A stretch of 55,976 nucleotides of DNA, counting the filler, from Basidioascus undulatus (lineage: Eukaryota): NCBI GenBank assembly GCA_000826855.1. It is 4 parts of 4 records of this genome, joined end to end, with 100 filler letters (N's around TTAATTAATTAA, not from the genome) between each part and the next. Parts side by side here need not be neighbours in the genome. Positions count along the whole stretch, not along the records: positions 42,085 to 55,976 come from JTLS01000773.1; 3 more parts are not named here. One strand, written 5' to 3'. Position numbers and translations under genes: made by a program. Of the stretch, positions 13,942 to 54,035 are shown in pieces (the stretch's first letter is position 1; each line of letters starts with the position of its first letter). Under the pieces are notes generated by a model. The model worked only from the letters and a program-made list of their open reading frames with translations. It had not been told where the DNA came from and did no database searches.

Positions 13942-14041
13942 NNNNNNNNNNNNNNNNNNNNNNNNNNNNNNNNNNNNNNNNNNNNTTAATTAATTAANNN
14001 NNNNNNNNNNNNNNNNNNNNNNNNNNNNNNNNNNNNNNNNN
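13942..14041. other. Artificial contig linker N44-TTAATTAATTAA-N44
   Basis: 100-bp spacer whose palindromic core places stop codons in all six frames. Confidence 0.99.
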
Positions 14042-27976: not shown

Positions 27977-28076
27977 NNNNNNNNNNNNNNNNNNNNNNNN
28001 NNNNNNNNNNNNNNNNNNNNTTAATTAATTAANNNNNNNNNNNNNNNNNNNNNNNNNNNNNNNNNNNNNNNNNNNN
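27977..28076. other. Artificial contig linker N44-TTAATTAATTAA-N44
   Basis: Same 100-bp spacer. Confidence 0.99.
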
Positions 28077-41984: not shown

Positions 41985-42084
41985 NNNNNNNNNNNNNNNN
42001 NNNNNNNNNNNNNNNNNNNNNNNNNNNNTTAATTAATTAANNNNNNNNNNNNNNNNNNNNNNNNNNNNNNNNNNNNNNNNNNNN
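41985..42084. other. Artificial contig linker N44-TTAATTAATTAA-N44
   Basis: Same 100-bp spacer. Confidence 0.99.
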
Positions 42085-42705: not shown

Positions 42706-44880
42706 ATGTCGACTCTCGCGGACCAGCAAGCCACGCAAGACCTGACGATCAAGCCGTCCGCGTCCGCGCCCACGCTCGACACGTCCCAGTGGCCACTCCT
42801 GCTCAAGAACTACGACAAGTTGCTCGTGCGCTCGAGCCACTACACGCCGATCCCCCATGGCATTAGCCCGCTGAAGAGGGATCTGAAGAGCTATATAAAG
42901 TGAGTGGCGCTGCCCAGCCTTACTCGAGTCTTTTGGGGGGCAGTTGGGAAGATGGGAGAGAGGGACAGGGGGAGACAGCGATGGAAGGATGAAAAGCGCT
43001 TCATAAACAAATCAACTAGAAGGCTGTTTATGAGTTCCTTTGGGAACGACGACCTTAATCACGCTTCTGATCATCGCACCTTGTCATCGCACCTTCCTTC
43101 GAACGCATGCTGACTTTCGCCCCCTCCCCCTCTTGCGTCTTGCCGCGTCTGAAGGTGAGTTTTCTTCCTGTTTGTGGTTTGAAGAGAGTTGGTGGCACGG
43201 TGTGGTATGGTGGGAGACGAATTGGAGGACGATAACCTTGCTTAAAAACAAATCAACTAGAAGGCTGTTTATGAGCCCTCGGGCACTGAACATACCTCTT
43301 AATCTGACTCAATCTCTCCCACCCACACTCCTCTCACCCGCTGTCGAAGCGTCCGCTAACTGTCCTACCTGGGCTGGTGTGTATTGGTGATGGCACAGAT
43401 CGGGCGTGATCAACCTCGACAAGCCCTCGAACCCGTCCTCGCACGAGGTCGTCGCGTGGATCCGGCGCATGCTCCGCGTCGAGAAGACCGGCCACTCGGG
43501 GACGCTCGACCCGAAGGTTACGGGGTGCTTGATCGTCTGCATCGACCGCGCGACGAGGCTGGTGAAGAGCCAGCAGGGGGCTGGTGCGTTTTCCTTTCTC
43601 CTCCCTCTTCCCCCTCATTCCCGCCTTGTCCGTTCCTCCGGATCTGAGAAAATGCAAGGGATGCTCACGTTCATCCGCCCGCAGGTAAGGAGTACGTTGC
43701 TGTCCTGCGCCTTCACTCGAAGCTGGACCAGCCCGCCGCTCTCCCCCGGGCGCTGGAGACCCTCACCGGCGCCCTGTTCCAGCGCCCGCCGCTGATCTCC
43801 GCCGTGAAGCGCCAGCTCCGCATCCGGACGGTGCACGAGAGCAAGCTGATCGAGTTCGACAACGAGCGCGGGCTTGCAGTCTTCTGGGTCTCGTGCGAGG
43901 CGGGCACGTACATCCGCACGCTCTGCGTCCACCTCGGCCTCCTCCTCGGCGTCGGCGGCCACATGCAGGAGCTCCGCCGTGTCAGGAGCGGGGCGATGAG
44001 CGAGAATGATGATATTGTGACGATGCATGATGTGCTGGATGCGCAGTGGCTTTATGACCAGACGAGGGACGGTGCGTTGCTCTTTCGTCTTCTGTCCTTC
44101 CCCTCCTTGCCTTTTCGATCCCGCCTTTTGTCGGAGACTGACTTGAGTTCCTTGGATCGCCCGCTCAGAGTCGTACCTCCGCCGCGTCATCCGCCCGCTC
44201 GAGTCCCTGCTCGTCGGCTACAAGCGCATCGTCGTCAAGGACTCGGCCGTCAACGCCATCTGCTACGGCGCGAAGCTCATGATCCCCGGTCTCCTCCGCT
44301 ACGGTTCGTCCTCCATCCCTTCTTCCCTCCTCCCCACCTCCTTGCCACCCCTTCCCTTCCCCTTCCCTCTCTTTTCTTCTGACTTTCGTTTGATGCACAC
44401 AGAGGCCGACATCGAGGTGAACGAGGAGGTCGTGCTGATGACGACCAAGGGCGAGGCGGTCGCGATCGGTGGGTCACACTCCCTCTGTCCTCGCCTTGAA
44501 GATGACGGTGGCTGATGCGGGGAGGGGGGTACTTTGTGTGGTGGTCCAGGTATCGCCCAGATGTCGACCGCCGACCTCTCGTCCTGCGACCACGGCGTCG
44601 TCGCCAAGGTCAAGCGCTGCATCATGGAGCGCGACACATACCCGCGCCGGTGGGGTCTGGGGCCGAAGGGTGCGTCGTCGTCGTCCTCGCTCTTCCCTCC
44701 CCCTCTCCGCATCTCTTCCCTCTCTATAACTCAAGCTGACGAGATGATGTACGCCCGTCCGCAGCCCAAGAAAAGAAGAAGCTCATCAAGGACGGCAAGC
44801 TGGACAAGTTCGGGAAGAAGACGGACGCGACGCCCGACTCGTGGAAGAAGGAGTACGTCGACTACCGGAACGACGAGGAG
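42706..44880 (+). CDS. CBF5: H/ACA snoRNP pseudouridine synthase Cbf5/dyskerin (C-terminal tail missing or garbled after ~44880)
   Basis: [90 protein letters not shown] domain, [19 protein letters not shown]. Confidence 0.97.
42978..43077 (+). ncRNA. Putative intronic box C/D snoRNA, copy 1 (LSU rRNA guide, SNORD95-like element)
   Basis: Terminal stem GCGATG/CATCGC, box C AGGATGA at 42986-42992, antisense element ATCAACTAGAAGGCTGTTT, D' ATGA at 43030-43033, GTTCC-TTTG-GGAAC hairpin, C'-like ACGACGA, box D CTGA at 43067-43070. Confidence 0.8.
43109..43160 (+). other. Putative recursive splice site (zero-length exon) inside CBF5 intron 1
   Basis: Branch point GCTGAC at 43109-43114, a polypyrimidine tract, and the first downstream AG at 43153-43154 immediately followed by GTGAGT at 43155-43160. 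Confidence 0.7.
43209..43323 (+). ncRNA. Putative intronic box C/D snoRNA, copy 2 (paralog of copy 1)
   Basis: Terminal stem GGTGGGAGA/TCTCCCACC plus ATTG/CAAT, box C variant AGGACGA at 43226-43232, identical 30-nt guide plus D' block at 43246-43275, GCCC-TC-GGGC inverted repeat, box D CTGA at 43304-43307. Confidence 0.78.
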
Positions 44881-53961: not shown

Positions 53962-54035
53962 GGCCGCTTAACTCAGTTGGTTAGAGTGTGGAGCTAATAA
54001 CTCCAAAGTCGCAGGTTCGACCCCTGCAGTGGCCA
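53962..54035 (+). tRNA. tRNA-Ile(AAU), intronless
   Basis: Acceptor GGCCGCT/AGTGGCC-A, D arm ACTC..GAGT, anticodon stem TGGAG/CTCCA with loop CT-AAT-AA, T arm GCAGG-TTCGACC-CCTGC. Confidence 0.96.

Follow-up and report, generated by a model that had tools for sequence, protein, structure and literature searches.

Two Paralogous Candidate snoRNA Genes of the CD_28 Family in the CBF5 Gene of Basidioascus undulatus

The CBF5 Locus

This analysis concerns a stretch of 55,976 nucleotides from the fungus Basidioascus undulatus (assembly GCA_000826855.1), here called the window, in which the gene for Cbf5/dyskerin, the H/ACA enzyme, appears to host two paralogous small nucleolar RNAs (snoRNAs) of the box C/D class. 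The window joins parts of four records of this genome end to end; all positions count along it, and those from 42,085 onward come from JTLS01000773.1. The host gene lies on the plus strand. Its first exon (42706..42899) opens with an ATG at 42706, and the translation ends in ...KSYI followed by the AA of a split Lys codon. The leading A of exon 2 (43399..43583) finishes this codon and the reading frame continues. In Pfam, exon 1 matches profile positions 1-39 of the 58 that make up DKCLD (E 4.5e-16), and exon 2 matches DKCLD positions 41-58 followed by TruB_N positions 1-38. Because the host exons hold DKCLD, TruB_N, TruB_C_2 and PUA domains, the gene is identified by its domain content as CBF5/dyskerin.

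Both snoRNA copies are found on the sense strand of the 499-nt interval between these two exons (42900-43398). As DKCLD is matched up to position 39 on one side of this interval and from position 41 on the other, the interval is non-coding throughout, with no coding exon unaccounted for. The other CBF5 introns examined are about 100 nt long. In a search of the literature on snoRNAs, CBF5, introns and fungi, the titles and abstracts of the matches listed report no CBF5-hosted copies of these snoRNAs, and a search with 16-nt strings from the guide found no paper. Relative to the literature searched, CBF5 is a new host for the family to which the two copies are assigned below.

The Repeated Block and the Anatomy of the Two snoRNAs

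The primary observation in the interval is a 30-nt block, AAACAAATCAACTAGAAGGCTGTTTATGAG, which comprises a guide and a D' box and which an exact repeat search finds unchanged at 43005-43034 and 43246-43275, both on the plus strand and spaced by 241 nt. With up to three mismatches allowed, these are the only two matches on either strand of the whole window, and two or more matches occurred in 0 of 100 dinucleotide shuffles of it. The sequences on either side have diverged. The upstream flanks of the two blocks are 61% identical, with an alignment score that 0 of 300 shuffles reached, and the downstream flanks are 63% identical, with a score reached by 13 of 300. Thirty consecutive identities would be very unlikely under neutral decay at the divergence of such flanks, which points to selection on the guide and D' box in both copies. 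The original prediction had rested on this identical block with its diverged flanks, and the repeat search and flank identities bear it out.

Copy 1 (42978..43077, +; about 100 nt) and copy 2 (43210..43322, +; about 110 nt) were delimited from box anatomy, fold and a profile match. In copy 1, a terminal stem GCGAUG/CAUCGC (42978-83 / 43072-77), present in the sequence and in the minimum free energy (MFE) fold, encloses a C box AGGAUGA (42986-92), the guide (43011-43029), a D' box AUGA (43030-33), a hairpin GUUCC/GGAAC between D' and C' (43034-47), a C'-like element ACGACGA (43046-52) and a D box CUGA (43067-70). The same order is repeated in copy 2, where the terminal stem (43210-17 / 43315-22, likewise from sequence and MFE fold) reads GTGGGAGA/TCTCCCAC as DNA and GUGGGAGA/UCUCCCAC as RNA, and grows inward through GA(A)UUG/CAAUC. 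It is followed by a C box AGGACGA (43226-32), the guide (43252-43270), a D' box AUGA (43271-74), a D'-C' hairpin GCCC/GGGC (43275-84), a C'-like element CUGAACA (43286-92) and a D box CUGA (43304-07). In both copies the D box lies near the 3' end and the terminal stem would bring it next to the C box. The terminal stems and D'-C' hairpins stand at the same places in the two copies and differ in sequence.

Folding of the two RNAs retained the terminal stem in each case. Copy 1 has an MFE of -27.9 kcal/mol (z -2.48; 2 of 200 shuffles did as well), and copy 2 has one of -29.1 kcal/mol (z -2.24; 6 of 200). Longer folds gain extra external stems between purine-rich and pyrimidine-rich stretches, with modest z scores of -1.9 and -1.7. 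In the MFE folds, a 9-bp hairpin UCAUAAACA/UGUUUAUGA can cover the guide of copy 1, and copy 2 has no such hairpin. Variant C boxes, D' and D boxes, and terminal stems of different sequence had all been predicted for both copies, and every one of these elements is present; the folds also agree with the earlier proposal that an internal stem can hide the guide in copy 1 and is largely lacking in copy 2. The functional difference between the paralogues proposed on this basis is conjectural.

The Predicted Target in LSU rRNA

The guide is complementary to the large subunit (LSU) rRNA sequence AACAGCCUCUAGUUGAU with one bulged guide A. Target tests used the ribosomal DNA (rDNA) of other fungi, retrieved by the 17-nt complement of the guide without the bulge. 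In a collection of bacterial and archaeal genomes this complement was found at 41 loci, 22 of which have rRNA flanks that share CAGGTCTCCAAGGTG, AACAGCCTCTAGTTGAT and AGAAYAATGTAGATAAGGG in succession. All six of the loci tested score as LSU_rRNA_eukarya, at 1750-2229 bits, and the rDNA loci in the bacterial collection are eukaryotic contaminants. The 19 matches without rRNA flanks were set aside as chance matches in bacterial DNA. As an observation in its own right, the 22 loci (in the series L006-L045) are short fungus-like LSU rDNA contigs inside bacterial assemblies or metagenome-assembled genomes, some of them with 5.8S and small subunit (SSU) rRNA as well. Since the loci were retrieved by the pattern itself, they establish the presence of the sequence in fungal LSU rRNA but not its universality.

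One of these loci, L043, has rDNA that covers the 3' part of the SSU, the 5.8S and the 5' two thirds of the LSU. The best duplex of the guide on L043 falls at the target site with -26.3 kcal/mol, followed by a runner-up at -17.9. Shuffled guides on the same rDNA gave a mean of -17.0 (sd 2.1) and a minimum of -25.0, so that 0 of 100 reached the value of the real guide. Read away from the D' box, the pairing with LSU G-AACAGCCU-CUAGUUGAU comprises one G·U and eight Watson-Crick pairs, then the bulged A (43020 or 43021 in copy 1), then nine more pairs. By the D'+5 rule, T43025 faces the A of AAC-A-GCC, which is LSU residue 1859 in L043 and 1856 in L007. The LSU context at L043 position 1859 is GGTGAACAGCCTCTA, and the target A stands within GGUGAAC-A-GCCUCUAG. 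Elsewhere in the LSU, a site with the sequence GAACGGCCUCUAGUG (at about 1412-1418 in L043, and also found in L007 and L028) resembles the GAACAGCCUCUAGUU of the target and offers the same guide eight contiguous pairs with one G·U; this pairing may allow weak binding at a second place.

The predicted target A corresponds, by sequence context, to N. crassa 26S-A1845 and human 28S-A2802. In Neurospora crassa, Nc CD28 is listed in Table 1 of PMC2780460 as an intronic snoRNA of 78 nt directing 26S-Am1845 through its D' guide and Am1859 through its D guide; the homologues given there are Arabidopsis snoR33 and human U95, with none in budding or fission yeast. Its sequence (Additional file 1 of the same study) has UGAUGA, then, further on, GAGAGGCUGUUU, and then AUGA. 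Compared by eye, the 13 nt AGGCUGUUUAUGA are common to Nc CD28 and both window copies. As this match includes the 3' end of the guide and the D' box, Nc CD28 would select the same A. The offsets in the rDNA are consistent with this, since +14 is an A (Am1859) and +21 is a U (Um1866, the site of Nc CD22/snR62/U34; PMC2780460). For the human counterpart, SNORD95 is listed for 28S A2802 and C2811 (PMC3511933), and a table that places Am2802 under SNORD95 gives it RiboMeth-seq scores of 0.83 and 0.77 (PMC5597630). Paralogues of Nc_CD_28 are described as persisting in Sordariomycetes (PMC5824354). The family, the target site and the retention of paralogues are therefore already in print.

Three of the claims that the original prediction made about this target were supported. 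Complementarity of the block to a conserved LSU sequence with one bulged A was borne out on surrogate fungal rDNA; the selection of the A of AAC-A-GCC by the D'+5 rule agrees with the register on L043 and L007; and the identity of the site with that of SNORD95/U95 is in keeping with the assignment of Nc CD28 to it and the equation of that snoRNA with human U95 (PMC2780460).

The guides upstream of the D boxes gave a different result. On the SSU 3' part, the 5.8S and the LSU 5' two thirds, no target of either D guide was better than those of shuffled sequences: the two copies reached -17.3 kcal/mol (equalled or bettered by 39 of 100 shuffles) and -13.2 kcal/mol (by 80 of 100). The region covered includes the neighbouring site to which a second guide would be expected to point (Nc Am1859; human Cm2811), and the D guides did no better than shuffles there. 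By these comparisons both D guides look orphan.

A Family of Intronic Box C/D snoRNAs

Metagenome contigs were scanned with a guide pattern that had N at the bulge and at the two positions before UGA, and 15 loci were returned. Twelve of them, which amount to six distinct sequences, have AGAAGGC, a C box, a D' box NUGA and a D box CUGA. The other three (L049, L053 and L060) have a C where the bulged A would stand, lack C/D boxes, and were dropped as unrelated. In the six distinct homologues the C box lies 21-24 nt upstream of this AGAAGGC and is UGAUGA in five and GGAUGA in L052; the D' box is CUGA or UUGA, compared with AUGA in the window copies, the variant that Nc CD28 also has in its published sequence. 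All six have a GTRAGT donor 31-68 nt 5' of the C box, and five of the six have a CTGAC branch site 37-56 nt 3' of the D box. The 18-nt guide, bulged A included, is identical in the six (L048/L046, L052, the L059 group, L050, L058 and L055). Counting the two window copies, the bulged A is present in 8 of 8 extended-guide sequences, at a position where the scan pattern forced one nucleotide, so that the frequency of bulge-less relatives lies beyond the reach of the scan.

A sequence-only profile (model length 90) was built from the six homologues, with no window sequence in it, and compared with the 56-kb window. It gave exactly two matches: copy 2 at 43226-43309 (E 5.7e-10; model positions 5-87 of 90, from C box to D box) and copy 1 at 42988-43043 (E 1.2e-8). 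Because a profile made only from homologues matches exactly these two places, the two elements are assigned, on sequence similarity, to a family of box C/D snoRNAs that lie in introns. The variant C boxes of both copies align beneath the UGAUGA of the homologues. That the copies are box C/D snoRNA genes at all was the core of the original prediction, and it is upheld by homologues with the same guide, canonical UGAUGA/CUGA boxes and fungal introns around them. A reading of the block as a protein-binding or splicing element of CBF5 was rejected, as the guide and the C/D boxes recur in unrelated introns. A scan of viral contigs with the guide and an optional bulge gave four loci, none with an Rfam family, and these were taken as chance.

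The hosts of the homologues are of interest for the role of CBF5. A tblastn search at E 1e-3 found no CBF5 N-terminus in the 15 metagenome loci. In L058, the homologue for which the host flanks were searched for protein families, the snoRNA lies in an intron between the U-box and Prp19 domain exons of a PRP19 homologue (L058:1277-1832, +). Since none of the six distinct homologues is in CBF5 and one is in PRP19, CBF5 does not look like the usual host of the family, and its use as host here looks incidental. The L058 snoRNA also has a D guide that ends in AAUCAACUAU before CUGA; by eye, 8 bp are possible with rRNA UAGUUGAU, in the same rRNA stretch, a pairing that would select the U at +9, where human Cm2811 lies.

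It had been suggested that co-expression with CBF5 couples the supply of C/D and H/ACA particles. The first half of this suggestion stands, as co-expression follows from the intronic position. The second half is not supported: with relatives in unrelated hosts, nothing suggests that selection has tied the snoRNAs to the gene of the H/ACA enzyme. Regulation in cis of a gene for a protein of snoRNA-protein particles (snoRNPs) does have a precedent in SNORD86, which resides in human NOP56 (PMC11028025). For the present pair, the lack of a conserved CBF5 host among the homologues means that no such feedback is implied.

Guide RNAs, Pseudogenes or Other Roles

Several points weigh against reading the two elements as working methylation guides. 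The target and the bulge rest on the rDNA of other fungi, retrieved by the very pattern under test, and for the same reason of pattern design the 8 of 8 conservation of the bulged A is uninformative on bulge-less relatives. Only eight Watson-Crick pairs and one G·U are contiguous beside the D' box, which is short for a methylation guide, and other LSU sites offer 8-10 contiguous pairs when G·U is allowed. The C boxes of both copies depart from RUGAUGA, copy 1 once (G at position 2) and copy 2 further, with a second deviation (C at position 5) that should weaken the kink-turn. The C' candidates, ACGACGA and CUGAACA, are weak matches. Rfam searched over 42880-43420 at E up to 10 gave no snoRNA family (three matches to fragments of long non-coding RNAs, E 3.2-6.6, were taken as chance), and with Rfam 15 no family matched any of the six homologous loci at E up to 1.

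One or both copies, chiefly copy 2, could instead be decaying pseudogenes without stable snoRNP assembly. The departures of AGGAUGA and AGGACGA from RUGAUGA, the degenerate C' boxes, the D guides that perform no better than shuffles and the lack of an Rfam match for the window copies all fit this explanation. It sits badly with 30 identical nucleotides between flanks that are about 61-63% identical, and with the fact that both copies keep the D box, terminal stem and D'-C' hairpin through stems and hairpins of different sequence. Moreover, the C box GGAUGA recurs in the homologue L052 and in Nc CD50, which is reported as cloned. We regard decay of either copy as improbable.

A second question is whether the RNAs act on something other than methylation, either as folding chaperones of the pre-rRNA or as cis regulators of CBF5 splicing. 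The duplex is unusually long, with 18 pairs and a bulge after pair 9, and the guide of copy 1 can hide in its 9-bp hairpin; both features would suit a chaperone or a cis-acting element, and the case of SNORD86 in NOP56 (PMC11028025) shows that cis regulation has a precedent. A role in cis is at odds with the occurrence of the same guide in unrelated hosts (PRP19 in L058, and CBF5 in 0 of 15 loci), which argues for a conserved function in trans. A further point against such roles is the placement of the guide in exact D'+5 register on the A that the sources cited assign to Nc CD28 and U95. We hold either role to be very improbable. With these points on both sides, two paralogous snoRNA genes of the CD_28 family, lying in CBF5 introns and guiding LSU methylation, are the best explanation of the locus, and we hold it with fairly high confidence.

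Two Proposed Abutting Introns

The 499-nt interval has two sets of splice signals on the plus strand. Proposed intron A (42900..43154; 255 nt), whose splicing is deduced from its signals, would begin at a 5' splice site GTGAGT (42900-05), use a branch site GCTGAC (43109-14, branch A at 43113) and end at the AG at 43153-54. Proposed intron B (43155..43398; 244 nt) would begin at a second GTGAGT (43155-60), use a branch site GCTAAC (43355-60, branch A at 43359) and end at the AG at 43397-98, after which exon 2 continues in frame. The acceptor of one thus abuts the donor of the other in the junction AG/GTGAGT at 43153..43160. No AG comes between the internal branch A and the one at 43153-54, and the GTGAGT directly next to the latter is identical to the donor at 42900; an AG followed directly by a 5' splice site, with its own branch site upstream, is what defines a zero-length exon in sequence terms. 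The junction sequence AGGTGAGT has two occurrences on the plus strand of the window. The composite of CTRAC, 10-50 nt and AG/GTRNGT has a single occurrence on both strands of the 56 kb, and it is at this junction.

The positions of the snoRNAs relative to these signals follow the family. From the D box to the branch A there are 43 nt in copy 1 (to the internal site) and 52 nt in copy 2, compared with 37-56 nt in the five homologues that have the branch site, and copy 1 lies 289 nt from the outer branch A. We lean, by a little, towards removal of the interval as two abutting introns through two-step splicing. The interval most likely arose, to judge from its two halves, by tandem duplication of a whole snoRNA-bearing intron. 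After a duplication of this kind, the acceptor of the first half would adjoin the donor of the second, with an exon of zero length between them.

The same snoRNAs could instead lie in one ordinary intron of 499 nt, excised as a single lariat, with the internal GCTGAC and AG/GTGAGT no more than relics of the duplication that the spliceosome does not use. That the internal signals may be such relics weighs against two-step splicing, and the outer splice sites by themselves do give the correct reading frame. A single lariat would need an endonuclease cut between the copies, or else would leave an RNA of about 345 nt capped by snoRNPs at both ends; in mammals, one lariat with two snoRNPs is described as giving such RNAs, the snoRNA-ended long non-coding RNAs or sno-lncRNAs (PMC10557570). 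This account is set against the uniqueness of the composite signal at the junction, the position of copy 1 within the family range from the internal branch A and far from the outer one, and the retention of GTGAGT at the start of both halves while the adjoining sequence diverged. It also departs from the mode reported in N. crassa, where there is one snoRNA per intron (PMC2780460). A single intron is, in our estimation, rather unlikely.

An internal branch site with AG/GTGAGT after it, which would give each snoRNA its own intron, is not reported for this interval in the literature searched, and the gene layout is uncommon. A zero-length exon with recursive splicing has been described, on experimental grounds, in the 336-nt intron of SPNCRNA.445, the host of S. 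pombe snoRNA61 (10.1101/226894). A separate observation concerns a purine-rich arm 5' of copy 1 (42959-42978), which is 80% complementary to the pyrimidine tract that follows the internal branch site (43114-43133). Pairing between them, if it forms as modelled, may place both the snoRNA and the branch site in a loop; alternatively, the complementarity may be mere base composition.

Proposed Mechanism and Significance

A working model can be put together from the anatomy of the locus and from what is established for box C/D snoRNPs. Transcription of CBF5 would deliver both snoRNAs within one pre-mRNA, on whose C/D and C'/D' motifs Snu13, Nop56, Nop58 and Nop1 would assemble. Splicing, probably in two steps, followed by debranching and by exonuclease trimming that stops at the assembled snoRNP, would yield two RNAs of about 100-110 nt. 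Each D' guide would then set fibrillarin/Nop1 on the LSU A that corresponds to Nc A1845 and human A2802, and the nine pairs past the bulge would add binding energy, most likely as an accessory clamp. We infer expression and methylation by both copies from their sequence, and the steps beyond anatomy by analogy with known particles of this class.

The bulged A would be a means of splitting the guide into a methylation-competent helix of 9 bp and a separate clamp of 9 bp, in answer to the limit on the length of the guide-substrate helix. A tentative extension, for which we claim somewhat less than an even balance of belief, joins this division of helix and clamp to the layout of the gene: the duplicated intron would force two consecutive splicing reactions for every CBF5 mRNA, with the splice signals themselves under selection. 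If this is true, the internal signals are kept to satisfy a rule of one snoRNA per intron, as otherwise a sno-lncRNA would form. Two-step splicing of the interval would make it a second fungal example of a zero-length exon, and the first in a protein-coding host met in this analysis. It would also make the locus a clean natural example of intron gain in which a whole intron was duplicated in tandem under the need to release an intronic snoRNA. The bulged A after pair 9 is also a potential test case for how eukaryotic C/D snoRNPs handle pairing beyond about 10 bp. Overall the feature is real and the original prediction was largely right; its points of interest are a CBF5 host not met in the literature searched, the probable pair of adjoining introns and the conserved bulged guide. 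As snoRNAs the two copies are ordinary; the value of the locus is modest and lies in the layout of the gene, and no long-standing open question is addressed.

Other Features of the Window

The sole Rfam match at gathering score in the entire window is a tRNA gene at 53962-54035 (+; 65.1 bits). Paired runs of 44 N, with 12 bases between the two runs of a pair, are found at 13942-14041, 27977-28076 and 41985-42084, a periodicity of about 14 kb. The last of these pairs ends about 620 nt 5' of the CBF5 start codon.

Comparison With Known Systems

The closest known relative of the window copies is Nc CD28, as far as its published sequence and target entries go. Like them, it is an intronic box C/D snoRNA with a D' box AUGA preceded by AGGCUGUUU (13 nt identical), and it has the same predicted target A. 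However, its C box is the canonical UGAUGA and those of the window copies are variants. Its guide is contiguous, with neither the bulged A nor the 5' AUCAACUAGA extension. Because Nc CD28 lacks both the bulge and this extension, the extended bulged guide is, judging by the sequences compared, a trait of a subfamily. Nc CD28 also has a second guide, upstream of its D box, that is directed to Am1859, whereas the D guides of the window copies have no convincing target.

The six metagenome homologues have the guide of the window copies with its bulged A, the same box order and spacing, and likewise an intronic position. They differ in being single-copy, each in its own intron of another host, and in having mostly canonical C boxes.

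At the level of gene layout, the nearest parallel is SPNCRNA.445, in which a 3' splice site likewise stands directly beside a 5' splice site within the intron of a fungal snoRNA host. As described, the case there was made by spliceosome profiling and reverse transcription PCR in a non-coding host, while here it is made from sequence alone in an essential protein-coding host. A further difference is that each half of the CBF5 interval has a paralogous snoRNA. Finally, SNORD86 in NOP56 resembles the present locus in that the intron harbouring the guide RNA belongs to a gene that encodes a snoRNP core protein. SNORD86, by the account cited, senses a protein of its own snoRNP class, whereas in B. 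undulatus the candidate C/D RNAs reside in the gene of the H/ACA enzyme.

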